From positions 76,142 through 128,441 of the forward strand of contig MQRK01170560.1 in the NCBI GenBank assembly GCA_001938485.1: a DNA stretch of 52,300 nt, in the 5' to 3' direction. The notes below the pieces were generated by a model. It was not told the DNA's origin. It searched no databases and worked only from the letters and a program-made list of their open reading frames with translations. Every line of letters begins with the position of its first letter. Within the stretch, counting starts at the first letter, position 1. Position numbers and translations under genes: made by a program. Of the stretch, positions 1,570-27,652 are shown in pieces. The stretch is from Girardia tigrina (taxonomy: Eukaryota).

Positions 1570-3000
1570 ATCTGCTGAATCTAGTTTGGCTGGAATGTAT
1601 TACAATAGAGTCAATGCGATCGCAAGGATTAAATATAAATCTCTCAACAAGAAGACAGTGTTTAGATTTGGATTTATTCTTCACTTAGAAATGTCAAGAT
1701 TATTCTAACTGATTCACTTTTATATATTCTGCCAGTAATTCTATCAAAACGTATGCTCAAATATGTCAATGATTCGCCCGAAAACTCTTCACTCTAGACA
1801 TAACCTAGAGTTGGACAAAAAAAGTTGGTGGACAAAATTCTTTATTGATGAAAGAAAAAAAAACATAATTAAAATCCCTACTAAAATTTTTGTATACGTT
1901 ATATTCATTTAATATCTACACAGCTACGTATATGGATGCAACTCATTGGCGAGTTTCTTGTTTTAAATAGTTCATTTTTCTTTATATTCTGTTGATAATT
2001 TTTATTTAAATATATATCATTGGTTCGCTCTAAACTTTCCTAAAAATTTTTATTCTAGAAATAACCTCGGCGAATAATGTTCTCCGATGGTAAAAGGAAT
2101 AAATTTTATCCAGATTATATATAATTAGAATTCCTACAACAATTATTCACACTTTATGCATGAAATTCCTGTATAAAGTAATCATATTTATTTAATATTT
2201 ACACAACTATATGCATATTTATAAATTTGTTAGTATTCCCCCCGGTACCGGCTCAGCAACTTTTATTCTCACTCGTATTTCTTACGCTCTTTCGCCAGTG
2301 CATCACACTTACTTCTCTCGTCCTTTCTCCCTACTCTACCGCAACTATACTGATACCAACTCGCCCCCTCGACTCTCCTCGACATCTTGTGATTATAACT
2401 TATACTAGTATATTTGGAATCGCAGGGTGGTGATATTAAATGCTGATAGACCTACATATGTTCAGTCACTAACTTATTAATAACTTTATCCAAAAACAAA
2501 AAGTGAACACATAATAAATTATTACAAAATATATATTAGTAAATTAACAAAACTAAAATAAATGGCGCGAAATCAATTCAAATCAATAATAAAAGAAAAA
2601 TGGGATTCAACGGGTGAAATTAATGAAACAAAAGTTTACCTCTGTGGCTACAATGGATGCAGATAAAAGATTTTCCGTTCTCTTCTTTAAATGATACTAT
2701 CGATGATTTTTAGCGATCTGAAGCAGCGGACCGGAATCCCGACCCAGCTCATCATCCTAACAAGCTGGGAGCCCATTTACAAACACTTGAGGATAGTCGA
2801 GTTTGACTATCCTCAAAACAAACGAAATACGGGCTCTCAAGCGTAAGGGGTGTCGGGCTTGGGAAAGGATGAAGGCACTCTGCAGTTATGCAATGGTGTC
2901 GGTCGTAACAAATACTTTTAAATACTTTTTTTAAGAGAAAAAAAGCATGTTTTTGAGACGTATTTTTCAATTATATAAATCACTATTAATCACTTTATTT

Positions 3001-3043
3001 CATTGCACTGAAGATGCCGAAATGGTGAAACGCGTATGTATTG
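3001..3043 (+). ncRNA. Minimal type I hammerhead ribozyme (Penelope-like element type)
   Basis: Stem I CATTGCA/TGTATTG, core CTGAAGA, stem II GCC-GAAAT-GGT, then GAAAC, palindromic stem III ACGCGT and cleavage triplet GUA (cut after 3036). AATAAA follows. Confidence 0.75.
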
Positions 3044-3881
3044 CAAATAAATTTAATATTCAAAAATGGCCTTTCTTTGCATTATATATATATATATATA
3101 TATTCGTTCATTTACGTTCGTTTAAACCCTTTAAATATTATACGGTAACTCCGTATTAATTGTAGTTTAATATGAAATAAAAATTATTATGAATCGAGTT
3201 TATCGATTTTTTATAATGAATATTAAAATTGAAATGATGCTTTATTGTAGTAGGTCTTAATTGTTTTTGATATTTGTAAATTATATCCGATCGTTTTGGT
3301 GGGATAAACTCCACCCGTTTAAGGATGGAATGGTCGCAAGAGAGAGCAAAAGTGCCCATTAAATTGGAAACTGCATTGATGTCATAACAAACCAAATTAG
3401 TCGTTTGAGAGATATCGAAATTAAAGGCTTAAAATACTCGAAAGGCTTGAAATACTCTATCGAACAATTGAACCACTCGATTCAACAATTATCGCTCATC
3501 GAAACGATGAAAATAAATTTCATAAATGAAATCTTAACGTGGATAATTTGCGACGGACGCGATATTGTGACGCGGAAGCAGAGATTCAGTCACGTTGCGA
3601 CACATGTCAAACTAATTATTGTCGAAAATTTCAACAATTTAACCGAACTTTGTCAACTGAAAATTAATAACTCATTGAAATGTTAAACGAGAAATTCCCC
3701 TACAACAATTTCCATTTCACATTGTTCGATACAATCGTTGGATTTGGTGAAACGGACGATTGACTGCATGCTGAGAGCCCTGATTGAAGGTGATAAAGTC
3801 GAATTTATTTATTTACATTTAGAAAATAATAGATTAAGCAATTACAATAATGATAAAAATAAAAGCAAAAATAATAATGAA

Positions 3882-4793
3882 TTAAATGATAATAATAATA
3901 ATAATAAAAGAGCGAGCAAAAAGCAAGACAACTGGCGAACACTCCGAGCTAGAGTCGCTCATTGTAGTGTGAAACTCGCCCCTCTCTATGCAATCAGCCG
4001 ATGGCTCATTTGCCGCGACACTTGCAGTGGCACTAGTCGCTGCATCTGATGTCAAAGGGTTCCATTCGCCAGTATTGTGCTTGCTCCAAGTTGCCGAGTA
4101 ATATATAATATTGGATACAATGCACATGCGTTTCATGTTCATTTTTGTTATATCAGAGAGCTTAAGCGTTTTTAACGAATCGTCATTCGCTTTCGGCCAA
4201 GAACCCAGACAACCAACCACAATAGTGTCCAGTCGCACTGTCCACCCTTTGTGGTGTTCCATCGTTTCTTTTTGTAATTCCTCATATTTTTTTATATTTT
4301 CTTTACGTGCTGATTCAAGTGTTTTGACAGTGTCATATGGCGTTTTAATGTCAATTAACCAGATTTCTCTTGTTCCATTGTTGTATATTTGCAAGTCGAC
4401 TCTACTTTTAGTGATTGACCACTCACACTCACGGTCTATGATGATTTTAAGTATCGGTTTTTCTGAAAGCATTGCCTCAGCAACCGTATGCATTACTATA
4501 TTGTGTCTTGCAGTGATTAGTGAGCTGTTTCTTTTGCAAAGACACAGAACATGTGTTTGTGTCTCTGCACTTGTTCTGCAGGCACGGCAGAGTGTTTCAT
4601 GGCGTGGCTTTCGTGGCTTATAGTTTGTCGGCAAGCTGCCAGTGCGTGCGCTGTGTAAAAATCTCCATTTGGTGTTTGACAAACCTTCATTGTGCATCAC
4701 CGCGACACTATCCTTTGACTCTGCAATCGGAATTGCATATGATCCGGCCATCGATTGCTTGCTCCATTTTGTAAACTTGAGCTTTGCATACAA
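3882..4793 (-). pseudogene. Non-LTR C-terminus: CCHC zinc knuckle + restriction-like endonuclease
   Basis: CRAC..ETQTHVLCLC, RHN, RVDL..IDIK, IVVGCLGSW. Confidence 0.9.
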
Positions 4794-5051
4794 TAGGTGG
4801 AAGTGTGGAGAAACTGTGTCAATTACTTTTTTGAGACCAGCACTGAGTCAGTGTCAGTGTAGATTTTCAGACAGATTCCCAATTCGTTTGTAGCGAATCC
4901 GACTCGCATTCCAATCGAACCGAGATATTTCATTGAATTGCGAATCTTTGTCCACCACGATTTAAACTCGTTTTCTTTTGTCCCGCATTGATCCAATCAA
5001 GACACTCAGAGAGTGTCCAGTCTCCGTCTTTTTGTGATAACGGTCCATCGT

Positions 5052-6453
5052 TTAAGCCAAGTTTATCAGAGTAAGATCTTGTGATGTTGAGTCCGAACAG
5101 GTAAGATTTCTATATGCCTGTATAATAGACTGCATGGCATATTCATCTCTCACCGACACAAGTCCAAGTCCGCCAAGATCTTTGTCAGCATAAAGATATT
5201 CATTGGACGAATTCGGAACTGTTCCACACATTTGCTTGAACAGTCGTCGGAACTCAACATCTAGACCGCTTTTAAAAATTGATTTTTTTCTCATCATGAC
5301 CCTAATCTGTGAGTTCCCTATTTGGAATGTTGTAGTTTCAGAAATAAAATGTAAACCTGGAGTGTATAAAGATTTTGTATGCCTCCAGCTTCTGCCAAGG
5401 AAACAACACAGATTTGGTAATTTTTTCCATGTCTTTTATAGCCGTTTTGAATAAGGTTTCTGGAGTAGTTTTTGTTTTTCCTGTGAAATTGACACCCAGG
5501 GAGTGGTACCCCCCCTCTTCAACTATTGGAATATTGGTGTTATTTATTAGAATGTCTTCAGTAGAGAGTGGAATGGATACGTAGCAACATTTACTGCGGT
5601 TGAATTTCATAGAGCTCCACGAGACTATATCTTCTGCTTTCCTGATCATTTTTTGTAGAGTTTGGTTTGATTCTGCAACGAGCGCAACATCATCAGCATA
5701 AGCCAGACAGGTTATGTGGCCGGCGTCTGTTGTTATTCCGTATTCCGGGTCTTCCTGTAGTGCCATTAGCATTGGATCGATCCCAACGCTAAATAACAAC
5801 ATAGAAAGTGGACATCCTTGTCTCACCCCCCTCCTTATTGAAATGTTTTCGGTTGTACAATCATTACAAGTGTAGATCGACGCACAATCCGAGTATAAAT
5901 TGCGTATTATGGGGCACGAGAATTCGTCCACCCCTTACGTGACAGTATATCAAGAATGTGTTCAATTTGTATACTGCCAAACGCATCTGTTAAATCTAGG
6001 AAGGCGACATGGAGATTCTTGTAATCTTCCAATAGAATGCGCATTATATTGTTGTGTTCTGTACAGCCGTCAGATGGACCTGTTCCTTTTTAAAATGGTG
6101 AAATCAAATTGTTTGCAAGCAACCATTCTTCCATCTGACTGCACAAGCAAGAGGTAAACAGTTTTGCAAGGCATTCCTTAGACCGATTGGTCTCCATGAG
6201 CTTATTTCCGTATATTTTCCTGCTTTACCCGGTTTTGGAATCATCACAGTCAGAAATTTTTTCCACGCAGTCGGAACAAGTCATGTAGTGATGATTCTGT
6301 TAAATAAAAGAGTGGTGAATTGACACCCCGGGTCACAATAATCAATATCCGAGTATGTGGTGTTAGAGATACCTGGACTACTTTTCTTAGTATTTTTAAG
6401 AATTTTGTCCACTTCTTCTGTTGTAACTTGTCGAATTTTGAATGTTGGACCAC
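5052..6453 (-). pseudogene. Non-LTR reverse transcriptase (fragmented)
   Basis: RGVRQGCPLS, LAYADD, FNRSKC, YHSLG, LYADKDLGGLGL; upstream KSSPG motif. Confidence 0.92.
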
Positions 6454-7533
6454 GTTTGATGTTTGGAGAATTGTCCCAGTTGGTCATTGGCGATTCACTC
6501 GTCTTTGATTGTGCATGAGTCCAAGCACTCCAGAGAGAGCTTGTATCCACGCTGATATCGTTCAAAATTATTTCAATCGCCTTTTTTGGATTAATTTTGA
6601 AATATTCTCGCAGATTTTTGTCTTTTTTAAATCTATCTTTGTTTAATTTTTTACCAGAGTGGATTTGTTTACTTGATTTTGTCCTTACCTGTAAAATATA
6701 TTTGGTAAAGACACATTCAAGTTCCTGCGCGCTCAGAAGATTATTTAGTGCAATTAACTTTGTTATTCTGTGAAATCTTTTGGCTCTATCTTCCTGAATT
6801 TTAGTCTCTTTTTCTAATTTCTTAATTTTTCTATATGATTTTTTATTTGTAATATCACATATGATTTCTCTAACATCGTTTTCAGGTGGACAGTTGTTAT
6901 ATAGTTGCCACAATGCATTTGAAATCCAAAACCTGTATATTGTTTATTGTCTGGAAAGTTTGTTGCATTTGTTGTTGTCCAATTATCTATCAGTAATCGA
7001 AAAAAAGAGAGCAGATTTTTATTTAGATTGTCAATTGCATTTGCCTGATCTTTTGTAAGAGAAATCATAGTGTTGTATATTGTGCTTGTTCCACTCAATA
7101 GGTTACAAAACGTCTACAAGTATCCACTGAAAATCAAAGATACAGAGATCAAAATACCCGTTATACATTTATAAACATTTCGAAAGATATATTTTGTTTA
7201 ATATAAGTATCATCATTTGTTGTTATTCTCAAAGTCGTTTGTGTAGATAATGTCAACCAGTTATCTTTAGTCGGTAAAAGTTTAGTCAAGTTGTTCATTC
7301 TAACATATTCGAAACGAAGCAGGTTTGCGACAGTTTCCCTCTTTTTCATATAGTCAGTGATATTTAGTTTACTTACTTTTTTGTATATTTAATCGGTTTT
7401 TTATCATTAGATATGTTATCATTTTTTTTAGAATTTTTCTTTCTATAATAATTATTATCTATTTGGTTGACTTTTTTGTATATTTTTTAACTTTTTATCA
7501 TCAAATATTTTATTATCCGGTCCTCACAAACTG

Positions 7534-8062
7534 TCACCCCCCTATAGTTTTGGCATTTCTATTAAGAATGTGTGGGCGCAGTTTGTGACATCTATTTATA
7601 ATGTTATCAATATCAATTTCCAAGAGAGGGTCCAACCGTTTCTTTATAATATTTTCTAAAAAAACACATACAAACGGACCACAATCGTTGTTATTTTCTT
7701 GTTTCTCGCATTCAGGAAAGATAAACGGTAGTTTTATTCTGTAAGGTTTATTTTGTCGGTCGGTGACTCTTTTGTTTATTGCAGTTATCGTTGGCGATAC
7801 AAGAGCAGTGACTATCTTTTCGGACGGCAAGTTGTTTAGATAATTAAAAATATAAGCGTGCTTCGGTGTACAGCATAACGCTAGCCAGTGTGAGTTATTG
7901 TAGTTAATTGGAATTACACATGACTCTTTTGTTTGTGTTAAAACCTTCAAAAATTGAATCTAAATCCTCTTCACCATGAAATAGTCTGGTAAAACCAGAG
8001 ATTTTTTCTTAATGCTGACATTTTTCAAAAAGATGTTTATTTCGTCATCATCGTACCAGTAT
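7534..8062 (-). pseudogene. Ulp1/C48-family cysteine protease domain of the retrotransposon
   Basis: WYDDDEINIFL (~8060), IPINYNNSHWLAL (His), KQENNNDCGPFVC (Gln, Cys). The expected Asp reads FNYL. Confidence 0.85.
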
Positions 8063-10333
8063 GACGGGTCAGGTGGCCTATCTGCATCTTCAGCAGTAGT
8101 TGAAGTTGCAGGGTCATCCCGTCAATCTGAATCTTTTAAACTTTTATTGATTTTAATATATTTTTTGTTTTTTGATAAGATAAATCTAGACGATACGCTA
8201 GACGCGTCAGAAAAAAAGATCACTATCACTTTCATCGACAACTAAATCTTTTGTAAGATTTATCGGTGTCTGGATATCACCTATTCGCAGGCTATCGTCC
8301 AAGTCCACCGGTTTGGCGAATTTTGCGATTACAGTAACGTGGTTCTCGGTCCTTCCGGATCCCGTAACCAATGAAACTTTCTCGCTTTCACCGGCAACGG
8401 TCGGCAGAACCGATCCGGTTGCTTTAATATTCAGTTCTGAGACTGAATTATTGTTGCCAATGTGGTAATTATTAACTCTTTTAGTGATTATAAAATTATT
8501 AAATTGTGAATCATTCCTTCCAGGTGCAAATTTGATATCGCCCGTCGCAAATAAACTTTATAGAATCGCGTAATTGTATACTAGTACTTTATGTTCTTTT
8601 ATAATTTCTTTAAGTTGTGATTTTAGATTAATATCAGCAACTAAATCTTTATGACGGGTAATTTTTAGTATCAGCTACGAATCTCAAAAGTCGTATCCAG
8701 ATTATTTAGTAGTTTTAGAGTTTGATATATTTTGTTTTTGCGTATTCGTGGTTGTCTTTTTCTTAAAGAGTCGTGTTATTTCATCAGAAAGTTCATCACA
8801 TAACAGATTCTAAAATTAAATCTAATTTTATATGTCGCTCGGTCGATCGGTCGGTTGGTCGGTCGCTCTGTCGATTTGCCGAGTGGATCAGTCGATTCTT
8901 TTTGACGAATCTGTCTCGGATCGGTACCGTTAGATTCGTCTCGTCGCGGCGTTTCTGAATCTGCTCCGTTCGTCGGCAAACTCCCGGTCGTTCGCTCCCC
9001 AGCTCGGCTTACATCAACGCAAATCGAATTTAACGCCAGATCTAAGATATTGGAGAGTAGACAATTAATTTTATTTCTGTTTAACTCGCTAAAGGTTTCA
9101 GGTGGAAACTTAGCGGCAATTTTCAGCACTTCTTTAGTAAAAGGCGAAAGATTGAAAAGATAGCTTTTTGAGAATTTTTGTGTCATTTTTTTAAAACTGT
9201 TTAAAACCGTCCTAAAGACGTCATTGTTTATAATTTTGGATTTCTATAATTGAACTGGGACAATTACTACCAATTTGACCTCATCATCAAATATTTTTGT
9301 TTTACTCTTTTCTTAACACGATTTTAGTATAATTATTGAAAAATTGCAAATCTTTTTTAATAATTTCTTTAAGATATTTTTAAAATTTATTATTTTTTAA
9401 TATTAGTTTAATGATATTTAAAAAATTATTTTTCTCACACATACTTACAACATTATTTAAATTTATACACATACACAAACACAACATGCATCCAACATTC
9501 AAAATAAAACTAACAATTTTCCTATCGTCCTCGTCGGAAAGAATGTCACTTTCATGAATGCAACCGAATTTGTCTTTTTGGCGAGATGTTTCAAATCTGC
9601 TAACTTTTTTTATCTATTTTTTGGGGATACGGCCCTTTGATTTTGTATATTTTGCGCACAATCCCACATCTTGGACACCAAATTTGGATGGAAACCGTGC
9701 CTCTACATTAAATTTAAAACCAGAGAACAGAGTTTCTAAATGAGCATCACTAGGCCAATGTACTTTAAAAGGTCTATTTGAATTAGGAGGATAATTTGAT
9801 ACAATTTCGTTTACTAGATTATTATTTATCAAATAATTGTGATGAGACAGAACACTGAACATTTTTTTTTATTTGAACAATTTGTTGGGTATTTAATTAA
9901 TTGACCTTTTAACTCTCTTGAGTTTTATAATGTCTACCAGAAATTTGTCTTTGAGTTCAGAAGGTTCTTCCAACTATCTGAATTCCTTTAACAGTTATTC
10001 CTCGCTTGAGGTTCAGTAAATCTTCCTCTCTTGAGGATCGTCACCAAATTCAATCTCGAAAGAGATTCTTTAGATTTGTTTTCTAAAATATTCTCGCAAG
10101 AGAATTTAGCAATTAACTTCTCGTTAAAATAAATAACAAACGACCAAATCTAGAAAACTTTATTGAGTAATTCAAATCGGCGAATATTCACAGTGGAAAG
10201 AAATAACAATGGAGAATCTCGATTAATTTTTCAATACTCTTTTTTGATTTTAAAATATGTTCCCTCTTATGCGTGCCCCTAACTTTAAGATTTTTCTTTA
10301 GAAAATTTTGTGTGAAATTTTGAAAAATTAGTA

Positions 10334-10349
10334 CGGGTATTTATACCCG
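10334..10349 (-). promoter_or_regulatory. TATA box (TATAAATA) embedded in the inverted repeat CGGGTAT-NN-ATACCCG
   Basis: Lies ~480 bp upstream of ATG 9862 on the same strand; promoter function inferred. Confidence 0.4.
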
Positions 10350-10493
10350 ATTTTATATAAAAAAAGTTAATTTAATTTTTTTTATCAAAATTATAAAATT
10401 TTTATATTAATAATATTAAATTTATTAATTAAAATTATAAAATTATGTAATCATAAAAATTAATTATTTTTCCTTTTTGTGAATTTATCCTGA

Positions 10494-10719
10494 ACATGAC
10501 AGGTGCACAAGCACCTGTCATGTACTATTTTAAATAATGTGCGATTGCACAAATTTAATATTTTTCGGTGCGCTTGCACCTGACTCTTAATTATTTTTCC
10601 TTAAGGTGCGATTGCACCAATTTCTAATTAAAACGATGCACCTGCATCGAAAACTACTCGGCTCACCCGCTCCTGTCTACTTCTCTCCTAACGATGCGCT
10701 TATTCGGTGCACTTGCACC
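10494..10719. repeat. Array of six dyad repeats GGTGC-N4-GCACC with mostly AT-rich spacers
   Basis: Dyads at 10494-10523 (13-bp stem), 10538-10551, 10567-10580, 10605-10618, 10634-10649 and 10706-10719. Confidence 0.9.
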
Positions 10720-10825
10720 AATGAATGTACAAATGGCAATAATGCCATTAAAATTTTTGGTGGAAAAATTTCCATCATTTTTTTAATTTTTAATTTTAAA
10801 TATAAGTTTTTATTTACAATATTAA

Positions 10826-11066
10826 TTAAATAATAAGTAATAATAATAATATAAATATTTAAATAATAATTATAATAATAATAATTATAATTACATTAAT
10901 AATTAATAATAATAATAAATAATAATAATAATACTAGTAATAATATTAATATAATTAAATAATAATAATTAATACTAAATAATAGTAATGATAATTATTA
11001 TAATTATAATAAGAGTAATAATAATAATACTAATATTAATAATAATGATAATCATATAATAATAAT
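10826..11066. repeat. Degenerate (TAA)n low-complexity tract
   Basis: About 240 bp composed almost entirely of TAA/AAT. Confidence 0.9.
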
Positions 11067-11308
11067 GAATCCGTTTACAGGATGACGACAAGTCTCTGCG
11101 GTGTATATGGCGTCACAATCATTGCATTTATTCTGATAAACTAAATTTCAACACAGATCAGTTGGAGTGATAGATTTACTGCTGAATAAACTTCCTATCA
11201 TACATGATCTAGAAAATTTTAAAATTTAATTTTTAATTTACTTTCATCATGTTTCAAAATAGAGTTTTTTAATTTTCTGAACTCTCAGAATAGGGAACGG
11301 TTATACCC

Positions 11309-11460
11309 GAAAACAGCGAGTTACAAAACAGCGAATTACATAACAGCGAATGTCAAAACAGCGAATGTCAAAACAGCGAATGTCAAAACAGCGAATCATC
11401 AAAACAGCGAATCATCAAAACAGCGAATCATCAAAACAGCGAATTCCGCAAAATAGCGAA
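11309..11460 (+). repeat. MULE left subterminal 15-bp tandem array
   Basis: About 10 copies of AAAACAGCGAATnnC. Confidence 0.95.
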
Positions 11461-11655
11461 TGAAATTTTTCATTTTAAAATGAGATTTTTGTCATTTAAA
11501 TNNNNNNNNNNNNNNNNNNNNNNNNNNNNNNNNNNNNNNNNNNNNNNNNNNNNNNNNNNNNNNNNNNNNNNNNNNNNNNNNATATAATTTAAAGCTTGTT
11601 TTAATTTTCGATTTTTCCATAACATTATTTTTAAGTTTTGCTTGTGAAAAACTCA

Positions 11656-13016
11656 ATGGAAATATTAACAACTCAAAAAGGTTCTGAAGCATGCAATTAG
11701 GGAGGATATTCCTACCGTGTAGATACAGTCACCGCAATTAGAAAAATTTGGCGATGTCGTACAATCGGTTGCAAAGGAAGACTTTGGTCAGATATTGACA
11801 ACTGTCATCCGATTGAAAAACAAGGGCATTCTCATCCACCAGCACCAGAAATTGGTATCGTAAAGTCTACTATTTGTAAGATGAAGCAACAGGCAAAAAC
11901 AGAAACGCGCAGTATTCCGATTATACATACTGATGCGGCAGCTGAAATTTCTGGTAATACTTCAGCTTCCGCCATATTTCCAGCTTTCAAATCTATAAAC
12001 AACGTGTTGTATCGGGCACGTCATGAGAAATTACCGGTTTTGCCTCAAAGTTTAAATGACGTCAACATACCTGATCAATTGACACAAAACTATTTCAGGC
12101 CAATTATTCCTATTGTTTATCAGTGTGGACAAATCAATTATATTATAATTATACTTGGAACAATAAGTAATTTACAAATGTTATCCAGCAATAACGATTG
12201 GTTCATGGACGGGTAGCACCTCCCTTTTATAAACAAATATTTACAACCCATGCTCTTCTTCAAAATAAAGTACTTCCATTAATTTATTGTATTCTGATAG
12301 ATAAAAAAGCTGAAACATACACATCAGTTTTTCGTAAAATTCGGGATTTATGTCTGGAGCATAATTTGATACTTTCACCAAATTTAATCACATTGGATTT
12401 CGAGAAAGGTTTAATAGTTGCGTTACAACAAGAGTTTCCGCAAAGTCGTCTACGTGGTTGTTATTTTCATTTCTGCCAAGCGATATTTAGACAAGTTCAG
12501 AAATTAGGTTTTAGTATCGATTATGGTAATAATCAGGAACTTAGAACGAAAATACGTATGCTTATGGCTTTGGCGTTTGTTCCTGAACAAATTGTTCAAC
12601 AAACTTTCGACAATCTGAGGGACGAGGCATCGGTAAATATTAGACCTCTATTCCAGTACTTCCGCCAGCAATGGTTTCAAAATATTAAAAAATAAATGTG
12701 GAATATGTATGGCATCAGACGGCGGACTAACAATGATGTTGAGGGGTGGCAAAACCGCTTCAATAATTTAGTTGCTAAGCATCACCCCAATATTTATGAT
12801 TTAATATCATGTATAAGAAAGGAACAAGGATTTACAGAAACATTGATGGCACAAATTAATGCTGGGCAAGTTANNNNNNNNNNNNNNNNNNNNNNNNNNN
12901 NNNNNNNNNNNNNNNNNNNNNNNNNNNNNNNNNNNNNNNNNNNNNNNNNNNNNNNNNNNNNNNNNNNNNNNNNNNGTGGAATTTCTTTCAGTTTAAGCAC
13001 ACCAATTGCATTTTGA
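11656..13016 (+). pseudogene. FLYWCH-MULE transposase, disrupted
   Basis: ATG 11656; WRC..C..HSH (FLYWCH); WFMDG, TLDFE, GCYFHFCQA, RTNNDVEG. Stops at 11698 and 12693; frameshift near 12210. Confidence 0.9.
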
Positions 13017-13094
13017 CAAAGTATTTAAAGTTGGTATTTTCTTAAAATAAAATTTTATATCTAATTGACTTTTTTTTCTATTTGGATAGTAAAT

Positions 13095-13240
13095 CGCTTT
13101 ATGTAATTCGGTGTTTTGTAATTCGCTGTTTTGTAATTCGCTGTTTTGATGATTCGCTGTTTTGATGATTCGCTGTTATGTAATTCGCTGTTTTGGGATT
13201 CGCTGTTATGTAACTCGCTGTTTTGTAATTCGCTGTTATG
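13095..13240 (-). repeat. MULE right subterminal 15-bp tandem array (inverted)
   Basis: About 10 copies of ATTCGCTGTTwTG. Confidence 0.95.
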
Positions 13241-14696
13241 GGGATACGCCTTATGAGGATTCGCCTAGGGAACAATCAAAACAAAACCAATATGATCATA
13301 ATTATTATTATCTATTTGATTTTCATTTTTGTCGCTATTTATTGTGTATAATTTTTCGTTTTCATTTTCCGATTTAATTAATTTATCGACAGTTTCACGA
13401 GTTATGTTTTCAACTGTCGATTTAGAAAAGCCATTTTTATGAAGCATGTGTTATAAATTGTCGTGCTCCCCTTTAAACAACATTAATAATGAGTCCCCAT
13501 CAGTTTTCCATTAGAGTTCAACTGCAACTCTATCGAAACTTAATCTATTTCATGTCAACGGGGAACAGACGCGCCTCCTTCGCTCACATCAACAAGTTGT
13601 GTGCGCGTCGGAGCGCCTACGGGTTCTTGACCAGTAACGAGGATATCCCGACTGGTAACTCAGCTTCTAGAGGGAATGATTATAACTTTGTTGATTCAAC
13701 TCCTCAAATCCGATTTTGTTACCTTGCGCCAGACAAAGATATCTCAACGAGACAAATGACGGTCAGCCCATGTGCCCCTGTGCATACTATGGTCTGCCTG
13801 CACCGTCTCCTCGAGGTCTTGTCCGAACAGCAACCCCATTCATGATTATGTTCCACCCATGTGTATGAATTCGTTTATACTTGAGGATCTAATTATGTAT
13901 ACTTCATATTATTATACTTATTCCATTAAATCACATTTTTATATATGTTAATCTCTGAATGACTTTTACAACTTGACTTTAGTGGTGATAGATTTTAGAA
14001 AGAACAACTTTCCTCAGTACTTTTGTCATGATGATTTGATATATCTGACTCTACACCTTTTACCCTGCATTCAGTTTTACATTTGACGCAATAATTTAAT
14101 TTAATTCTTGAGCCGGCAATAGTAATTTATATTTAATACGAAAGAATAGTTTAATTTCAAGAAATCGCTGTTATTTCAGAGAATCATTTTAGTTAATCAG
14201 TTAAAAGAACTCCTTGGAACAGTATTTTTCATGTTACCAGGTGTCATAATAGTGTAGATTGCGAGTGTTGTTTTAATCACCATTTCGAGGTTCTCATTCG
14301 TCTCTAACTTTATCTCCTCATTTTAATTCAGTCATCATAAATTCCAGTCCTGACGAAGACTGTGTCCCACTCTCTCATACGCCTCGACCTCTTGCCAATC
14401 TCACCTCACCCTTTCAGTTCTCAGTTTCTAAGAGCATTTTCTTACTCGCATTTAACCGTGCATAAGATCAACTCGATGGTCGTAAAATTCATAAAGTTGT
14501 AACCGCAAAATTATAAGACGATCGATAAAATTCGTGATTATGAAATATACCTACAATCGTATAGTATTTACAAAATCATTGACCGATTCAAAACGTTGTT
14601 ATAGAAAAATCTTTAAAACTGCATTACGGTCGAATTAGTTACAAATTAAATCAATAATTACAAATTACATCAATTATAAATTATATCCAAATAAAC

Positions 14697-15260: not shown

Positions 15261-15539
15261 AGAAGTATAGAAATTACTCGGATTGATCAGACCCTTCAAA
15301 AATAGCGTTTTTCGCACCTTTTTGAGAATTATTAAAAATCGATATTTTTTATCCATAAAACGTATATAATATTCAATAAATCTAATATTTTTATCGATAA
15401 AACACTATAAAAATTCAAAAAATCGAAAAAAATATTGATAAAACGTATACAATATTCAAAAAGTCATATTATTTATATCAAAAATGAGAACTCGAAGAAA
15501 AAAAAAGTGGATACCAAAAAGCCATACCGTAGTATGGCT
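15261..15539 (+). repeat. Polinton left TIR
   Basis: AGAAGTATAGAAATTACTCGG...GTATGGCT; reverse complement of 32123-32398 with few differences. Confidence 0.97.
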
Positions 15540-15560
15540 ATTTGGTATAATATTATTTTA

Positions 15561-15896
15561 TTAAAATGTTCTATAATTAACAACGTAATCAAATACTCGA
15601 TTACGTTTTATTAAATATTTTTTCAAATATTTATCTTTAATATTATAAAATACAGATTCATCAACAAGATCTTCAGAAAAAATCTGTTTTTCTTCATCAG
15701 TAAATTCTGTATTTCTTATCACTTCGAGTTCCCAAATAAGTTTTTTGTAAACTTCAAGTGATAATTCTTCTTCCTCTTCCTCTTCTTCATTATTATTTAC
15801 AAATATTATCAAATTATTAAAATAAATAATTTGATTATTATTATATATTTCTTCCAAATCATACTCATTTAAAAAATTAAAATTTTTACAGACCAT
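15561..15896 (-). CDS. Polinton hypothetical acidic protein (111 aa)
   Basis: AAAATG start, divergent from the next gene, ends next to the TIR. Confidence 0.6.
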   Translation of the reverse strand: MVCKNFNFLNEYDLEEIYNNNQIIYFNNLIIFVNNNEEEEEEEELSLEVYKKLIWELEVIRNTEFTDEEKQIFSEDLVDESVFYNIKDKYLKKYLIKRNRVFDYVVNYRTF

Positions 15897-15926
15897 TTTT
15901 TAAAATCTATTTTAATTTTAAAGAAA

Positions 15927-16448
15927 ATGAATGAAGAAATTTTTAAAAACAATATTGATTATTTAAAGGGGTTAAGTGATTTATCACTTGATGTTATTGA
16001 AAAAGATGTGAAATATATTGTTAAATCTACTTTTTGTGTTAATAATAAAAAAATTATTTTGGATTATTTGAAATTGAAAAATGAAACAAATTTGAAACAT
16101 TCAGAAATTTGTAAAAGATTAAATATTTCAACTTATCGATTTAATCGTATAATGAAAGATAATGAAATTGAATCGTTTTATCGTCATCCTGTTCCAACTC
16201 AAAAATCAAGAAGTAAGAAAAAAACGGAAAAAATAAAAACTGAGGAAAAACCGAAATTGAAAAGAAAAAAATCGAAAAAAGAAGAAGTTGAAATTGGAAA
16301 AGGAAAACTCGATATCTCTCCTGAATCCGAACTCGAATCTGATCATGAATCCGAATCTGAAAAAATTAAAAATGAAAATCGTGAAAGAATGTTGAAAATA
16401 TTAGAAGAAAGAAATTCAAATTATCTTAAAGAAAATGGAACTTGCTAA
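15927..16448 (+). CDS. Putative HTH DNA-binding protein with basic NLS-like tract
   Basis: LKHSEICKRLNISTYRFNRIMK resembles an HTH; K-rich region follows. Confidence 0.65.
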   Translation: MNEEIFKNNIDYLKGLSDLSLDVIEKDVKYIVKSTFCVNNKKIILDYLKLKNETNLKHSEICKRLNISTYRFNRIMKDNEIESFYRHPVPTQKSRSKKKTEKIKTEEKPKLKRKKSKKEEVEIGKGKLDISPESELESDHESESEKIKNENRERMLKILEERNSNYLKENGTC

Positions 16449-16944
16449 AATAAAAAATAAAAAAAATTTATCAAAGTTTATAACAAGAGCTGAAAAGGAA
16501 TATGATAAGATGAATCTGAAATCTCAAGCGCATCAAGGACGAAAACAAATCACTCAAATATTCCAATTGAAAGGAGAGCTCATAGATATGAAAAGTAAAT
16601 GGTTTACCGCGGTAGATTATTGTGCTGAATTGGCAGAAGAAGTGGAAAAAAAAGATGAAGATATCCTGTTTTTAAATAATGTAATAGATACAAAAAATAA
16701 TCAAATAGATATGTGTTTGAAAGAAATTGGAAACGATGATAAAGACAAACAAAAGAAATATGAGGATTTGATAAAACAACAAAATGATATATTGGACAAA
16801 TCTCTAACTGTTCCAAAATTCAATAATCGAAAAACTATTCTTTCAAAAGTGTTAAATAAAATGTATAATTGGTCACCAGAAGAATGTGAATTTATTTCCA
16901 CTTTAGAAAAAATTAATGGTATAAATAATGATCTACCGGATTGA
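16435..16944 (+). CDS. Polinton hypothetical coiled-coil protein (169 aa)
   Basis: AAAATG start overlapping the upstream ORF; heptad-like composition. Confidence 0.65.
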   Translation: MELAKIKNKKNLSKFITRAEKEYDKMNLKSQAHQGRKQITQIFQLKGELIDMKSKWFTAVDYCAELAEEVEKKDEDILFLNNVIDTKNNQIDMCLKEIGNDDKDKQKKYEDLIKQQNDILDKSLTVPKFNNRKTILSKVLNKMYNWSPEECEFISTLEKINGINNDLPD

Positions 16945-17091
16945 TTTAATCAAGCTTTATTTAGCTTAAATTGAAAAAAAACGCGGTACTTTTACTCTAT
17001 CCATTCGCAATAAATCCCTATCTAAACGATAGCGATATACTAATTTTAATATTCGAATGGAAAATTCATCCTCGAGAAATTAAAATTATTT

Positions 17092-17376
17092 TTAAATAAA
17101 ATCATCAATATTATTATCTTTACATTTTTCCTTTATTTCATTGGTTTCATTTTCAAGATCAATAATCTTATTTTTTAACATTTCTNNNNNNNNNNNNNNN
17201 NNNNNNNNNNNNNNNNNNNNNNNNNNNNNNNNNNNNNNNNNNTTAATAAAATAATTTAAATTTATTATAGCATTTTTATATACTCCTATCAAAATTTCTT
17301 TATCCTTTATAATCTTTTCTTTTGTTATTTGTATACCTATTTTATCATTATCAGATTTTAAATTATTTTTATTCAT
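17092..17376 (-). CDS. Small hypothetical protein (~94 aa, spans a gap)
   Basis: AAAATG at 17376 (MNKNNLK...). The longer ORF call merely reads through the repeat. Confidence 0.45.
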   Translation of the reverse strand: MNKNNLKSDNDKIGIQITKEKIIKDKEILIGVYKNAIINLNYFIXXXXXXXXXXXXXXXXXXXXEMLKNKIIDLENETNEIKEKCKDNNIDDFI

Positions 17377-17403
17377 TTTCTTTAAAAATATAATAGAATT
17401 TAT

Positions 17404-17484
17404 AAATTCCCAAATCCAAATCCCAAATCCCAAATCCAAATCCCAAATCCAAATCCAAATCCCAAATCCCAAATCCAAAACCCG
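17404..17484. repeat. AAATCC/AAATCCC tandem repeat (GGGATTT on the minus strand)
   Basis: About 12 units of 6-7 bp between divergent genes. Confidence 0.95.
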
Positions 17485-17647
17485 AAAGTTGTATCGTGAT
17501 TTGAAAAAATCACAATCTAAACATTTATTTATTAACAAATTTTTTTTCGACTCGTTCATTTTCTTTAAAAATAATTTGAAAATGGAAAGCAAATTTTTTT
17601 TTAAAAAAATTCGCGTTCTTTTCACCAAAAATTCGAAAAATAAAAAA

Positions 17648-18559
17648 ATGCCGAAGGAAAAACTGAATATTTTAAGTATGTACGAGTCAAAGTTTAAAAA
17701 CAAATTATTCCCAAAGAACTTTAGACTGCTAATAGTTGGTGAGTCGGGATGTGGAAAAAATGTTTTACTAGCGAAAATGTTATTGGAGGATAATTTTTTA
17801 GATTTTAATAATTTAATATTTTATTCCACAACTATTGATCAACCAGAATTGAAAGTGATTGCAAGTGGTTTTCGATTTGAGGACGGATCATCTTTAACAA
17901 AAATGGGAATACGCGATATCTTTGATAAACAAAATATGCTCTTATCCATGATAAAAGAGGAATTAGGTAATGATTCTGATAAAGATTATATTCCTCCTCC
18001 GGAATATCTGGTTTATGCGTATAAAAGATTTATTAATAATAAAAATAATATTGATAAATCAAAATACTTGATTAGAGATCCTGAGAAATCCATATCCGTT
18101 CTATTTTCTTCGGATCCCAATCAAATCGTCGCTTGCGACTCGCTACCAAAAGATGCAAAGAATCTCATTATTTTCGATGACGTGGTGAATCTGTCAGATC
18201 AGAAAATAATGAAATCGTATTTCACCAGAGGACGCCATAATAATTGTAATACGATATACATCTCCCAAACTTTCTACGGATTGGATAAGCATTCTATCCG
18301 GAATAATTCCACTAGATTCATTTTTTTCGAATTAGGAAAAAGAGATAAATCTTATATCTTCTCTGATCTCTTACCCAATAGCGAAAATATCAATGAATAT
18401 CAGCGGGAAATCATTCATCACTGGCAGCGGAAAAAATATAATTATATTTATTTCGATCGGACTGAGAAAAAAATTTATAAAAATATTTTTACTGAAGAAG
18501 AAATAGCGATTGATAATCCGAACATGCACTCAGATACGGAATTAGATGAAAGTGATTAA
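17648..18559 (+). CDS. A32/FtsK-like DNA packaging ATPase
   Basis: Walker A GESGCGKN, Walker B LIIFDD, RGRH, ISQ..IRNN; likely start MPKEK at 17648. Confidence 0.95.
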   Translation: MPKEKLNILSMYESKFKNKLFPKNFRLLIVGESGCGKNVLLAKMLLEDNFLDFNNLIFYSTTIDQPELKVIASGFRFEDGSSLTKMGIRDIFDKQNMLLSMIKEELGNDSDKDYIPPPEYLVYAYKRFINNKNNIDKSKYLIRDPEKSISVLFSSDPNQIVACDSLPKDAKNLIIFDDVVNLSDQKIMKSYFTRGRHNNCNTIYISQTFYGLDKHSIRNNSTRFIFFELGKRDKSYIFSDLLPNSENINEYQREIIHHWQRKKYNYIYFDRTEKKIYKNIFTEEEIAIDNPNMHSDTELDESD

Positions 18560-18691
18560 TGATTTTATAAAATAGTTAATAGCATATCATGGAATACACA
18601 TTAAAAATATTATTGTTCTTTTCTAACCGTTTTCCTTTATTATCATGTCTACAGAAATAGCTTGATAGTATTGGAAATTTTTATTAAGAAA

Positions 18692-19633
18692 ATGATGATT
18701 ATTAAAAAAGAAGGCGGTGGAGGCGTCTTTGATAGCGCGAAGCGGGTATCCAAAGGCGGTGGAGACTTCGATTCTCGAAGAGCAATCGGAGGTGACATTC
18801 AACAATCTATGGGAAATTTTGCAAAATATATCCCTGGATTTATGAAAACAAAATACGGAGAACTGCATTTACCAGGTAAAAATTATTGTGGTCCTCTAAC
18901 AAGATTGGATATCCGATTAGATGAAAATGATCAACCAATCGGCGAAGATAATAAACCAGTAGATGGATTAGATGAAGCCTGTTATAAGCATGATATCGCT
19001 TACAGATCTGAAGATTTACGAGATCGGCATTTAGCTGATATAAATTTGATTCATGATATCAATCAACTTCAAGATCTGTCTTTACGCCAAAAATTCGAAA
19101 GATTTCTCATAAAAACAATTATGAAAGGTAAAATCGCATTTGGCGGTGCCGTTGATGATAATAAAATAGATAATAAACAATTAGCCAAGGAATTACATAA
19201 AGAACATAAAAGAAATAAAGACTTTCTTCGAATAAATGTTAAATCACTGAATCGGATTTGGTCTGCTGACTTGATAACTGTTGACGCTAAAGAAGATACT
19301 GAAAATGGAGTCGTTGCAACAACAATAACAAAATCGGGACAAACCAGAAAAATTTGGAAATATTATATTTTAACAGTTATAGATATTTATTCTCGTTATG
19401 GTTTTTTCCGTTTTCTTCCCAATAAAAAATCTGAATCGATAATTCAAGCTTTCATTTCAATTCTTACTGAATTAGGAAATACTGAATTACCAATTCCAAA
19501 ATATTTATGGGTTGACCAGGGAGCTGAGTTCACAAACAAGGAATTCGATAAAAAATTCCTAAAAGCTAATAATATTAAAATGTATTTTGTAAAGAAAAAC
19601 CTGTTTTTATTGAAAGATTCAATCGAACTTTGA
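18692..19633 (+). CDS. PLA2 (parvovirus VP1u-like) fused to the N-terminal/core part of a retroviral-type integrase
   Basis: LPGKNYCGP and DEACYKHDIAY, then in frame LAKELHK, WSADL, VIDIYSR, WVDQGAEF. Confidence 0.92.
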   Translation: MMIIKKEGGGGVFDSAKRVSKGGGDFDSRRAIGGDIQQSMGNFAKYIPGFMKTKYGELHLPGKNYCGPLTRLDIRLDENDQPIGEDNKPVDGLDEACYKHDIAYRSEDLRDRHLADINLIHDINQLQDLSLRQKFERFLIKTIMKGKIAFGGAVDDNKIDNKQLAKELHKEHKRNKDFLRINVKSLNRIWSADLITVDAKEDTENGVVATTITKSGQTRKIWKYYILTVIDIYSRYGFFRFLPNKKSESIIQAFISILTELGNTELPIPKYLWVDQGAEFTNKEFDKKFLKANNIKMYFVKKNLFLLKDSIEL

Positions 19634-20097
19634 AATCTGAAATCTATAAACTATTTACCGAGAAAGGGGAGAAAGTTATCACTGAGTTGGAAATGCAAAA
19701 AATATTAGAGAATTATAATAATAGAATTCACAGCTCTATCCGTCAAATTCCACATGATGTAATGTTCAATGATGCGATTCCAGAACCAAAACCACAAAAA
19801 TTACCAAAGAAAAAAATTAAGCCAAAATTCAAAGTTGGAAATCGAGTTCGGGTATTCGAAACAAAATTATTCAATGGAGATAAACCTGAAGGCACTCGTA
19901 ATAAAAACCAGGAACGGAAATTACAGACTTTTAAAAAAGGTTATGAACCGAAATGGACTCGTGAAATTTATGTAATTTCAAAAGTTTTGGATCATGAATA
20001 TCCTGTAACTTATAAACTGATAAATCCTACAACTGAAATACCTAAAGAACTATTTGGTCGGTTCTATGAAGCGGATTTACAAAAATCAAAATTTTAA
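19591..20097 (+). CDS. Integrase C-terminal part (-1 frame relative to the upstream ORF)
   Basis: KEKPVFIERFNRTLK (catalytic Glu), YNNRIHSSI, KFKVGNRVR, FKKGYEPKWTRE, GRFYEADLQ. Confidence 0.9.
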   Translation, partial: KEKPVFIERFNRTLKSEIYKLFTEKGEKVITELEMQKILENYNNRIHSSIRQIPHDVMFNDAIPEPKPQKLPKKKIKPKFKVGNRVRVFETKLFNGDKPEGTRNKNQERKLQTFKKGYEPKWTREIYVISKVLDHEYPVTYKLINPTTEIPKELFGRFYEADLQKSKF

Positions 20098-20102
20098 AGA
20101 AA

Positions 20103-21536
20103 ATGGAAACAAGTTTTGAAAAACCAATAAATCAATTAACCTCAGGAATGATTCCGTTGGGAATTTTAGATCTTGATAACAATAAGGAATTTAGTCACGT
20201 TTTGAAAAAAACCGATGTAATAAAACTGGCGCCAACCAGTGGATCACAAGCATACATGAATCAGAATGGAACTCTGGTTTATCAGCTCTCCCAAACCACC
20301 GATCCGATAGATATTTGTAATGCTAAACTGGTTTATGATATTGAAATAAAAAACGGGGATGAACATTCAATTCTTGAAACCAACTTCTTCCCTAAATTAT
20401 TTTCATGCATGTCATTAAAATTAGGTAACTATGTCGTGGAATCGATAAATAATCCTGGAGTTGTATCAGATATGTTATTATATGTCTCTAAAGATAGAAA
20501 CTATTTACCCTGCGGAGAAATAACGGATTTTATTCCTGATCATTATGAAATGACATATGGAGAAAAAATAGCTGCGGTATCATCAGTACCATCTACAAGT
20601 AAAAAAATTATTGATGAAGAAGATGAAGAGGATACTCCCGGTTCGAGCGGGGGTACTCTCAATACAAAAGAAATTCCAGCTGGTCTACGATATCAAAATA
20701 TTGGAATAGAAATTCGTAAAAATCAATTTAAACATAATAGATTCAAAGGTGCTTTCTCACTGAAACATCTTTTCGGATTTCTGCAAAATTATAACCGAGT
20801 TATTTACAATATTCTCCTGGAATTTACAATGGTTCGAAAAATAGATCATAAAAATATATTTTACAACAAAAATTGTACCAAATGTGAAGTACATATAAAA
20901 TCCCTGGAACTGCATATGAATCAATTGGAATTGAATATCGATTCTTATGGACGAATAATTGAACGATTAAATCAGAAAGATAAACCGATTTATGTGGATT
21001 TCCTTAAACGTCTCTCAATGGAGTACTCATTAACATCCGAAAAATCATTTAACTGGAATGCTGCATATCTGAATTATTTACCTCGATATATTTTCATTGG
21101 AATGAAACTGAAAGATTCAGATTATAAATCGAATAATTCTCGATTTTTTATGGATAAAGAAGAATTCTCAATTCAAATAAAACTTAATAATACCTATTAC
21201 CCAATCCAACCAATGGAAAATGTAAAAGCAAATCGGAATTTCTATGATTTATATAATTCATATGTTCAATGCTGCCGTGGATTTCAAGACAAAGCTCCAA
21301 TATTATCATTGAAAGATTGGAAATCTCTATATCCAATTATATGTTTTGACACTTCGGATATTGATAAAACTTTATCCGTTAACAATGTTACCGTAACAAT
21401 AATGATTAAGAAATCTGAAACGTTTCAACCAAAGATGTATTGTGTAATTTTGGAAGAAGCAAAAATAAAAATGACTCTGCGGGGATCACAAATTACCATC
21501 ATAGAACCATTAAAAGGATCTGTTGATAAGAAATAG
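20103..21536 (+). CDS. Major capsid protein (double jelly-roll, PY/hexon-like)
   Basis: 477 aa, beta-rich; LKHLFGF, PRYIFIG, NNTYYP and YPIICFDTS motifs typical of Polinton MCP. Confidence 0.88.
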   Translation: METSFEKPINQLTSGMIPLGILDLDNNKEFSHVLKKTDVIKLAPTSGSQAYMNQNGTLVYQLSQTTDPIDICNAKLVYDIEIKNGDEHSILETNFFPKLFSCMSLKLGNYVVESINNPGVVSDMLLYVSKDRNYLPCGEITDFIPDHYEMTYGEKIAAVSSVPSTSKKIIDEEDEEDTPGSSGGTLNTKEIPAGLRYQNIGIEIRKNQFKHNRFKGAFSLKHLFGFLQNYNRVIYNILLEFTMVRKIDHKNIFYNKNCTKCEVHIKSLELHMNQLELNIDSYGRIIERLNQKDKPIYVDFLKRLSMEYSLTSEKSFNWNAAYLNYLPRYIFIGMKLKDSDYKSNNSRFFMDKEEFSIQIKLNNTYYPIQPMENVKANRNFYDLYNSYVQCCRGFQDKAPILSLKDWKSLYPIICFDTSDIDKTLSVNNVTVTIMIKKSETFQPKMYCVILEEAKIKMTLRGSQITIIEPLKGSVDKK

Positions 21537-21683
21537 AAAAAAAATTCTGCTTCCTTTCTATGAAAAATAAAATTTTGGATCCCCGAAGGTTAATAATTTT
21601 TTTCTCAGCGAGAACAAAAATTATTATTACCAAAGGTTTGATAAATATTTTATTTTTCACAAAAAATAAAATATTTATCAAAA

Positions 21684-22370
21684 ATGGCTCCGAAAACAGA
21701 TGCTTTAAAAATACGAAAATTGATAGATACTCAAACTCCCGGTTTGATTCGTGTGAATGGAAAGGAAATGTATTTAAATCGGGAAATGTTGAAAAAGATT
21801 AAAGATTTGGAAAAAAATGGTGGAGAGATCGGTGGATATTATCACAGTGGTGGATTATTGCCACTTATCCCCGCTATAATCGCTGGTTTAACTACTCTTT
21901 TCACAGTAGGAGGAGCAGCTGCGGGAGTAGCCGCTGGAGTATCAAAAACTGTTTCAAATGCTCGTGAAGCACAGAAGATGCAGGCGGAAAAAGAGAAAAT
22001 AGATATTGAAAAACAAATAAAACAAAAGGAACTTGAAAAAATGAATACACCGGTGGTTCCACCAACGGGATCGGGATTACGGAAATCAAAAGGAAAAGGA
22101 TTACTTGGAGAATTTGTACCTAGAACTATAATGTCGAAAATGGGAATAAAAGATATAGATGAGGGAGAAGGGTTGTACTTGGATGATTATGTTGGAAAAG
22201 GAATACAAAAATTTTTTCGTGAACAAATAAATCAATCGGATAAAGATCCAAAATCGAAAAAGGCTCTATTGAATAAAAATAAAAAATTGGGAGGGAAATT
22301 GAAATGTCATTTCATGGGAAAGGGATTATATTTGGAACCTTGGGATCCGAATAATCAGAATCGGATATAA
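21684..22370 (+). CDS. pX-like core/membrane-active virion protein
   Basis: GGLLPLIPAIIAGL..GGAAAGVA hydrophobic segment, coiled coil, repeated GxG[LI], C-terminal GKGLYLEP. Confidence 0.8.
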   Translation: MAPKTDALKIRKLIDTQTPGLIRVNGKEMYLNREMLKKIKDLEKNGGEIGGYYHSGGLLPLIPAIIAGLTTLFTVGGAAAGVAAGVSKTVSNAREAQKMQAEKEKIDIEKQIKQKELEKMNTPVVPPTGSGLRKSKGKGLLGEFVPRTIMSKMGIKDIDEGEGLYLDDYVGKGIQKFFREQINQSDKDPKSKKALLNKNKKLGGKLKCHFMGKGLYLEPWDPNNQNRI

Positions 22371-22372
22371 AA

Positions 22373-23497: not shown

Positions 23498-23551
23498 GGA
23501 TGAATTCTAACGAAATGGGAATTTGTTTACAAATTACTGATTTCGTTAAAA

Positions 23552-24373: not shown

Positions 24374-24457
24374 GAAGAATTATATTATAAAAATGATAGA
24401 ATTTGGTGACCCGAAGGGTAAAGAATTCTATCTTGCTATAAAAATTTTTTTATAAAA

Positions 24458-24937: not shown

Positions 24938-24992
24938 TAGTATTGTAATTGTAAATATTTTTGTTCTCTAAAAGAAAAAAATATTTACAAAA

Positions 24993-27370: not shown

Positions 27371-27391
27371 TAATTTAAAATAATAAAAAAA

Positions 27392-27652
27392 ATGGAGAAA
27401 GAAAAATTTATTTGTGATGTATGCAATTTTAAAGGTTTAATACAAAATAAACAGAGACATTTGGATAGTAAAAAACACCATGTAAAATCGAACTTTGAAA
27501 AAGTTTATCAAGCTGTTAATTCTAATAATGAATATATACCGAATACAGAAAATAATAGTAATTCCGATACTGAATATATACCGAATACAGAAAATAATAA
27601 TAGTAATACCGATCCTGATTATATACCGAGTAATTATTCCGATACTGAATAA
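27392..27652 (+). CDS. Small C2H2 zinc-finger protein with repeated acidic tail
   Basis: CDVC..KQRHLDSKKH; EYIPNTENN repeats. Confidence 0.75.
   Translation: MEKEKFICDVCNFKGLIQNKQRHLDSKKHHVKSNFEKVYQAVNSNNEYIPNTENNSNSDTEYIPNTENNNSNTDPDYIPSNYSDTE

Follow-up and report, generated by a model that had tools for sequence, protein, structure and literature searches.

The closest described counterpart of the locus analysed here is found in plant LTR retrotransposons. For Sirevirus LTRs, sets of about 7-9 palindromes, conserved in their arms and variable in their centres, are described upstream of a TATA box located in the middle of the LTR (PMC2829016, PMC4728375); according to the same sources, the arm sequence varies among families, and a cis-regulatory role has been proposed for these palindromes. 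Among animal elements, the LTRs of Metaviridae are described with TGTTRNR...YNYAACA ends, a TATA box, an AATAAA signal and a GT-rich tract (PMC3601003), and the Steamer elements carry a Leu primer-binding site (PBS) (PMC8905726). As regards non-LTR retrotransposons, LIN elements have been depicted inserted within other transposable elements (PMC4640811).

The window, that is, the whole 52.3-kb stretch of DNA that was analysed, contains an array of short palindromic dyads on the 5' side of a decayed RLE non-LTR retrotransposon encoded on the minus strand. Six strand-neutral dyads, as the initial annotation had proposed, are present at 10494-10523, 10538-10551, 10567-10580, 10605-10618, 10634-10649 and 10706-10719, and six was not reached in any of the 10,000 dinucleotide shuffles made of 10480-10730 (maximum 2, mean 0.013 dyads per shuffled sequence). 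The centre-to-centre distances of 36/29/38/30/71 bp and the perfect 13-bp arms of the first dyad were measured exactly as annotated. These dyads, hereafter family A, share the core GTGC/GCAC, and their variant arms still pair, as had been claimed: the 30 inner pairs include two double changes (dyads 2 and 5, the latter with 6-bp arms) and are Watson-Crick throughout, none being broken. Column shuffles gave as many doubly changed pairs in 1/500 cases; since the copies are paralogous and were recognised precisely as dyads, these compensated changes are weaker evidence than covariation among orthologs. Half-sites are seldom unpaired, with 11/13 right half-sites belonging to a dyad, and there is also a degenerate, strand-neutral seventh unit, consisting of the left arm and centre only, at 10692-10707. 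The spacers had been described as unrelated, which does not hold for copies 2 and 4 (20/22 nt alike) or for copies 3 and 6 (18/20 nt alike, flanks included). Because these pairs have common flanks, we take the array to have grown partly via duplication.

The six dyads belong to a larger cluster than the one first noted, spanning 9911-10777. In the region 9880-10790 the number of dyads with a 4-nt centre was 14, where 0.62 were expected, and 0/300 shuffles attained it, while the same region has one dyad with a 3-nt centre and none with a 5-nt centre; the counts at 6- and 8-nt centres mostly re-count the 4-nt-centred dyads. Nowhere else in the window is such a density found, nor are there further copies of the array in it. 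Five of the remaining dyads, all strand-neutral, form a family B (CTC-N4-GAG) with the core CTC/GAG, at 9911-9924, 10000-10011, 10024-10037, 10052-10067 and 10090-10105. In this second family the fourth pair occurs in three Watson-Crick forms, and its covariation score was matched in 5/500 shuffles. Both families have in common a C-G closing pair and a loose centre pattern, namely TT or AA at the end in 10/11 and A or C at position 2 in 11/11 centres, although this pattern was set post hoc.

As previously annotated, the TATA box lies itself within a dyad: TATAAATA (minus strand, 10345-10338) is enclosed by the dyad 10334-10349, 149 bp from the array. Family B lies downstream of it, and the region 149-430 bp upstream contains the six family A dyads plus two others, both strand-neutral, which we call C1 (10732-10749, 7-bp arms with a 4-nt centre) and C2 (10761-10774, TGGAA-N4-TTCCA). 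The arms of the TATA dyad, C1 and C2 are unrelated. The proposal of a fixed 4-nt centre stands in the sense that all 14 dyads have it, but in 4/14 of them (family A copies 5 and 6, the TATA dyad and C2) pairing reaches down to a 2-nt centre. The dyad centres show no helical phasing at 10.5 bp (R=0.10 and 0.06). On the minus strand, an initiator-like site at 10311-10316, with its A at 10313, 32 nt past the TATA start, provides a first candidate transcription start site; it follows what we take to be the initiator consensus, a common motif with 14 matches in 9250-10900.

Read along the minus strand, the dyads are confined to a segment with LTR-type motifs, whose order is an A-run, TG at 10777, dyads, the TATA box at 10345, more dyads, AATAAA at 9873 (9868-9873), a GT-rich tract and CA at 9685. 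The GT-rich tract (9843-9861, 13/19 nt) includes a TCAGT that offers a second candidate start at 9856. We infer that this segment of 1,093 bp (9685-10777, TG...CA), which contains 14/16 of the 4-nt-centred dyads of 8000-11300, is a 5' LTR. Its presumed 5' end, on the minus strand at 10769-10777 and overlapping dyad C2, is a short inverted repeat with an 8-bp perfect complement at 9686-9693, and the 3' repeat with the CA end (9685-9693, minus strand) was the best among 84 CA-ending candidates; the terminal inverted repeat is perfect over its 8 bp, with one extra base at the 3' end. The termini read TGA...CCA and do not match the terminal consensus TGTTRNR...YNYAACA. Moreover, the combination of TG...CA, inverted repeat and TGG is by itself common: 196 of 5,591 TG starts have it.

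The ends alone prove little, and the telling evidence for an LTR is the match to a PBS. On the minus strand at 9660-9680, beginning 4 nt past the CA end, there is a degenerate complement of the 3' end of tRNA-Leu(CAA), with 18/19 nt matching and a 2-nt insertion; the probe was the tRNA 3'-end sequence given in PMC7997516, picked after the likeness had been noticed. This site, read from 9680 to 9660, ranks at the top of 1,014 TGG sites, with a score of 14.5 compared with 9.5 for the runner-up, and its score was equalled by none of the shuffled probes (0/300 local, 0/40 over the whole window). The probability of the match is 6e-7 per site, about 4e-4 over 12 local sites and 0.03 window-wide allowing 50 tRNAs. 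The match covers the CCA complement and ends at about 18 nt. The CCA end is not encoded by eukaryotic tRNA genes, and primer-binding sites typically extend about 18 nt.

Some further features were observed around this site and elsewhere on the minus strand. The LTR-like 3' end and the PBS-like site together form a predicted G-U-rich stem (9648-9702), in a region whose folding z-score is only -0.33. A consensus splice donor is present at 9443-9448, 3' of the PBS-like site and ahead of an AT-rich stretch, which could correspond to a leader intron. A second tRNA-Leu PBS-like site, whose first 11 nt equal the probe, is located at 415-425 and is followed by a low-complexity ORF (428-27); its surroundings are unlike those of the segment described above, and it is perhaps a remnant of another LTR element.

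Within the 52.3-kb window we detected neither a second LTR nor a target-site duplication, and none of the three minus-strand frames of 8100-9660, 2900-3800 and 1300-2900 had any Pfam match, gag-pol included. As both gag-pol and a second LTR are missing from the window, we consider the segment a probable 5'-LTR remnant and not a full member of an LTR-retrotransposon family. Altogether, we judge it an even call that the array is the U3 cis-regulatory region of a 5' LTR of about 1.09 kb (minus strand, 10777-9685), left by a tRNA-Leu-primed LTR retrotransposon.

The comparison with known systems can be made on this basis. As described for the Sirevirus elements Ji and Opie of maize (PMC2829016, PMC4728375), several short hairpin-forming dyads occupy the upstream half of the LTR, shortly before the TATA box. 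The Sirevirus palindromes of these descriptions differ in having a CGG-CCG core and in belonging to plant Copia elements with multiple PPTs, whereas here the cores are GTGC/GCAC and CTC/GAG, the linkers are very AT-rich, all centres are of 4 nt, a second family lies downstream of the TATA box, the PBS is of the tRNA-Leu type and the element is probably from an animal. No internal domain is left at the locus, and the Polinton-like, mariner and Ulp1-RLE elements of the window suggest an animal host, presumably with an AT-rich genome dense in transposons. By analogy, the array would function like the Sirevirus palindromes without being a member of that group. The TG...CA ends, the short inverted repeat, the TATA box, the AATAAA and the GT-rich tract are shared with Steamer and the animal Metaviridae (Gypsy) as described in PMC3601003 and PMC8905726, and the Leu PBS of Steamer has the same start as the candidate PBS, the first 7 nt being identical (PMC8905726). 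In contrast, the Steamer LTRs of that source measure 153-219 bp with the PBS directly adjacent, compared with 1,093 bp and a 4-nt gap here; with respect to the Metaviridae pattern, the ends deviate from TGT...ACA and neither gag-pol nor a second LTR was found in the window; the superfamily may be Gypsy, BEL or Copia.

Under the LTR reading, the dyads would be repeated double-stranded DNA sites recognised by dimeric host transcription factors, which would drive the TATA promoter at 10345. Dimer-binding palindromes with an uncontacted 4-nt centre are found in the papillomavirus E2-type sites, and the half-sites of family A presumably resemble bZIP half-sites (C/EBP-ATF composite sites), a likeness of sequence only. 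The dyads would have multiplied through short duplications, and their symmetry may be maintained by error-prone reverse transcription together with fold-back copying. In LTR reverse transcription the U3 is regenerated in each round by strand transfer. In an LTR, therefore, there is nothing unusual in a promoter placed ahead of the start site, and under this reading the paradox of an external promoter disappears. Whichever of the two candidate starts is used (10313 or the TCAGT at 9856), family A would be part of U3, while family B would form hairpins of the R region if transcription starts at 10313, or would likewise belong to U3 if it starts at 9856. As for the history of the locus, the LTR element would have been inserted first, the RLE element would then have entered its leader, and the coding part of the LTR element would have been lost from the locus, leaving the decayed RLE element downstream.

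The neighbouring RLE element (minus strand, 3911-8110) carries an Ulp1-like protease, a reverse transcriptase, a zinc knuckle and an endonuclease, interrupted by many frameshifts. The first two domains were identified with Pfam (Peptidase_C48, E=1.7e-8; RVT_1, E=5e-17), and the zinc knuckle and endonuclease motifs were read by eye; the Ulp1-like domain is also present in 2/3 full-length homologs scanned. From minus-strand position 8100 to about 3996 the element aligns with a homolog of 1,348 aa (P0017), with 52-76% identity in the main pieces and 39% in one short piece, and the best PDB matches of this homolog are R2 proteins. The element had been called giant, but its size is ordinary (about 1,350 aa), given homologs of 1,318-1,350 aa and matched PDB R2 chains of 1,114-1,390 aa. 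In domain order alone it resembles NeSL and Utopia-1_TSP as presented in PMC4640811. With 7 stops in 1,252 codons, corresponding to about 4% decay (95% range 2-9%), this copy is dead. The idea that the array is younger than the dead RLE element was dropped: at the decay age of the latter 1-5 broken pairs would be expected in the array and 0 were seen (P=0.07 at the point estimate), a figure to be read bearing in mind that degenerate units exist. No N-terminal zinc finger was found in the RLE element, nor was an snRNA, SL, tRNA or rDNA target detected.

The homology to RLE proteins ends at about 8100, 2.4 kb short of the array. Between both, the leader (minus strand, 8110-9659) contains decayed ORF pieces, such as 9186-8776, in which neither gag nor RLE homology was found. 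The upstream ORFs 9186-8776 and 9862-9383 (with an X at one stop) gave no homologs, no Pfam match and no Atlas match, and the upstream-ORF AlphaFold model had a mean pLDDT of 52. Within one ORF piece, 21 contiguous nt (9131-9151, minus strand) equal the Rfam consensus of U5 snRNA stem-loop I and score 24.9 bits, where the gathering score is 40 (E=0.6-4); this may be due to chance or be a captured fragment. We considered U5 snRNA as a possible RLE target and rejected it, given that only this sub-threshold 21-nt stem-loop match was obtained, with no 3' half at any RLE end.

Two other, 5'-truncated RLE 3' fragments from related families are present in the window (41386-42040, plus strand, and 43030-43629, minus strand), both with an AATAAA and a short A or T tail. 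Their 3' ends, at about 42,030 and 43,035, resemble the LIN24 and LIN26 ends shown in PMC4640811, which have AATAAA and a short T or A tail, and one of the 3' UTRs carries a 4-nt-centred dyad at 42004-42017. The main RLE copy adjoins an (AAT)n tract and lacks the terminal AATAAA, whereas the two fragments have this signal and do not adjoin such a tract.

The arrangement of the (AAT)n tracts raises an alternative that we regard as unlikely, though with a real share of the probability: an RLE element with a captured 5' LTR and PBS module, which would have entered (AAT)n whole, as a 6.9-kb block reaching from about 10815 to 3911; the module could be a trait of the family or stem from a single event of 5' transduction. 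This block is flanked, in one and the same orientation (plus strand), by the only (AAT)n regions that the window contains. One of them (10818-11066), Asn-rich in several frames, forms the outer flank about 40 nt from the TG end, and the other (3846-3914) adjoins the RLE 3' end as an in-frame poly-Asn that follows the remnant of a DUF5738 gene (3228-3410, E=3e-17). Because the left tract is in-frame poly-Asn after DUF5738, the two look like halves of one split tract. Nothing of the LTR element remains after the RLE element, and with a single block between the (AAT)n regions simple nesting would require that the remainder of the LTR element was additionally deleted. RLE families that target microsatellites are known (PMC4640811), and two homolog-bearing contigs (6,709 and 6,735 nt) would extend to the array if they were full elements. 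However, the extent of a contig need not equal that of an element, and other contigs of the same cluster measure 5.7-5.8 kb (5,665, 5,745 and 5,844 nt), which would fit an RLE 5' end near 9500. Besides, a promoter inside the block would lose its U3 in the next round, so that read-through would be required, and the missing terminal AATAAA of this copy hints at a 3' deletion, with which it is compatible, and hence favours nesting. The more specific proposal that an Ulp1-bearing RLE family moves the captured LTR and PBS as one unit of about 6.9 kb into (AAT)n tracts seems to us very doubtful. On the plus strand, the second (AAT)n with a hydrophobic stretch (10818-11140) may continue the DUF5738 gene (3228-3914), which the block would have split. 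We also discarded a Penelope GIY-YIG fragment at 11055-11200, which had no Pfam support and reads equally well as the continuation of an Asn-rich plus-strand gene.

Another possibility, somewhat less likely again, is that the array is the native 5' UTR of the RLE element, with tetraloop RNA hairpins bound by a protein of the element or a host factor and acting in RNP assembly or translation control; the LTR-like motifs would then be coincidental. Each of the 14 dyad units is predicted to fold alone into a hairpin with a 4-nt loop, and the folding z-score of the minus strand is -6.1. The compensated changes in families A and B and the single centre length over unrelated arms, together with the lack of helical phasing, are explained by hairpins no less well than by protein sites, although the covariation counts come from paralogous copies selected as dyads. 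Over 591 nt (10453-9863) there is no ATG, which suggests a real leader (Markov P about 0.001), yet this run is only the fifth among 1,611. Strand-specific support for RNA is missing, since the plus strand folds equally well (z=-8.1), with mean pairing probabilities of 0.67 (plus) and 0.66 (minus) as RNA and of 0.88 and 0.90, respectively, as DNA. The core pairs are Watson-Crick in 50/50 cases, with no G-U, and Rfam 15 gave no match at the gathering score in the whole window (best E=0.38 over 9000-11320). In addition, a native UTR leaves the PBS match unexplained. A ribozyme in the 5' region was discarded as well, there being no Rfam match and no hammerhead core in 9300-11300.

The same data bear on what the dyads may do if the segment is an LTR. 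The RNA-hairpin option of the initial annotation is retained in that the units are predicted to fold, and loses ground for want of a preferred strand. Given that both strands fold equally, that the cores are all Watson-Crick and that the centres take TT or AA, which would be alike in duplex DNA and unlike in an RNA loop, we favour double-stranded DNA sites. Under the LTR reading, a function as DNA sites is thus somewhat probable, a function as RNA or single-stranded DNA hairpins is possible but clearly less likely, and dyads without any function are improbable.

We also considered, as quite unlikely, that the dyads are subterminal transposase-binding sites in a non-autonomous DNA transposon or a Helitron-like element, or that they are functionless palindromes made symmetric through fold-back repair. 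In favour of this, copies 2/4 and 3/6 represent local duplications, the perfect 13-bp stem hints at copying by fold-back and the segment is bounded by an 8-bp inverted repeat. Nevertheless, long terminal inverted repeats with a target-site duplication and head-to-tail units, as in a MITE or satellite, were absent, no tandem array runs across the dyads, and both the PBS and the lack of odd-centred dyads would be left unexplained. Finally, the initial proposal that the array serves the RLE element as an external promoter or enhancer, or else a host enhancer beside the insertion, is the least probable reading: enhancer-like dyads ahead of a TATA box do fit the anatomy, and the TATA box, the initiator-like site and the ATG-free stretch are all oriented toward the RLE ORF, but an RLE promoter is unsupported because the RLE homology stops at about 8100 and the AATAAA, the GT-rich tract, the CA end and the PBS intervene, which points to an LTR, while the TATA dyad belongs to a set of 14 similar dyads that extends to both sides of it, the RLE copy is dead and the surroundings are nearly all mobile-element debris.

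The searches for relatives of the array were negative within their scope. A covariance model of family A, built from six training copies only, gave no hit beyond them better than E=4.8, and blastn against phages and plasmids returned 2 and 4 chance-level matches, respectively. A three-dyad pattern run over prokaryotic genomes (10/64 parts) yielded 120 loci, of which 75 were simple tandem repeats and none resembled the array (best E=0.19); likewise, prokaryotic contigs searched with the RLE alignment contained no relative, and a scan for sigma-70 promoters stayed at background (5 vs 5.5), so this idea was dropped. No such array is described for NeSL, R5 or LIN elements in the portions of PMC4640811 at our disposal. 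In the full-text literature lying outside Repbase/Dfam and most subscription papers, we found no similar array described, either for the 5' UTRs of non-LTR elements or for elements of insects.

Several other mobile elements were observed in the window. On the plus strand, a minimal hammerhead-like core followed by AATAAA (3008-3050) had no Rfam match at threshold; this arrangement is presumably that of Penelope-like element ends. A MULE transposon with a broken transposase and terminal inverted repeats of 15-nt tandem units occupies 11295-13266. It is followed by a 17-kb Polinton/adintovirus-like element (15261-32398), whose terminal inverted repeats measure at least about 300 bp and which encodes an A32 ATPase, a PLA2-like domain plus integrase, a double jelly-roll capsid and an ORF of 1,408 aa that appears DNA polymerase-like by eye, some of its ORFs being split. 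At 34385-35830 (plus strand) repeated GCGTGG-type motifs precede ORF pieces that seem DEDD exonuclease-like by eye; the stretch 35004-35417 had no Pfam match. A mariner element (43880-45080, minus strand; Transposase_1, E=5e-23) and a hAT-like remnant recognised by eye (48130-50780, plus strand), with a 415-bp fold-back around a 46-nt tandem loop at 48406-48820, complete the set.

If the LTR reading is correct, the array would be a palindrome enhancer in the style of Sirevirus, in what is probably an animal LTR, and not a novel type of promoter, which makes its interest modest. Its odd property is that four unrelated arm sequences have one common centre length, and this makes it suitable for asking whether such dyads work as sites in DNA or through hairpin formation, which the accounts of Sirevirus in PMC4728375 and PMC2829016 leave open. 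If, on the other hand, the RLE element did capture the LTR and PBS, we would be dealing with an LTR/non-LTR hybrid that retains an upstream enhancer through target-primed reverse transcription, and its dyads would be a redundant promoter or hairpin array helping the spread of a clade that normally depends on host promoters. Such a hybrid would represent a route by which an R2-like element could become independent of the host transcription unit, and would bear on retroelement evolution and on R2-type gene-insertion tools.
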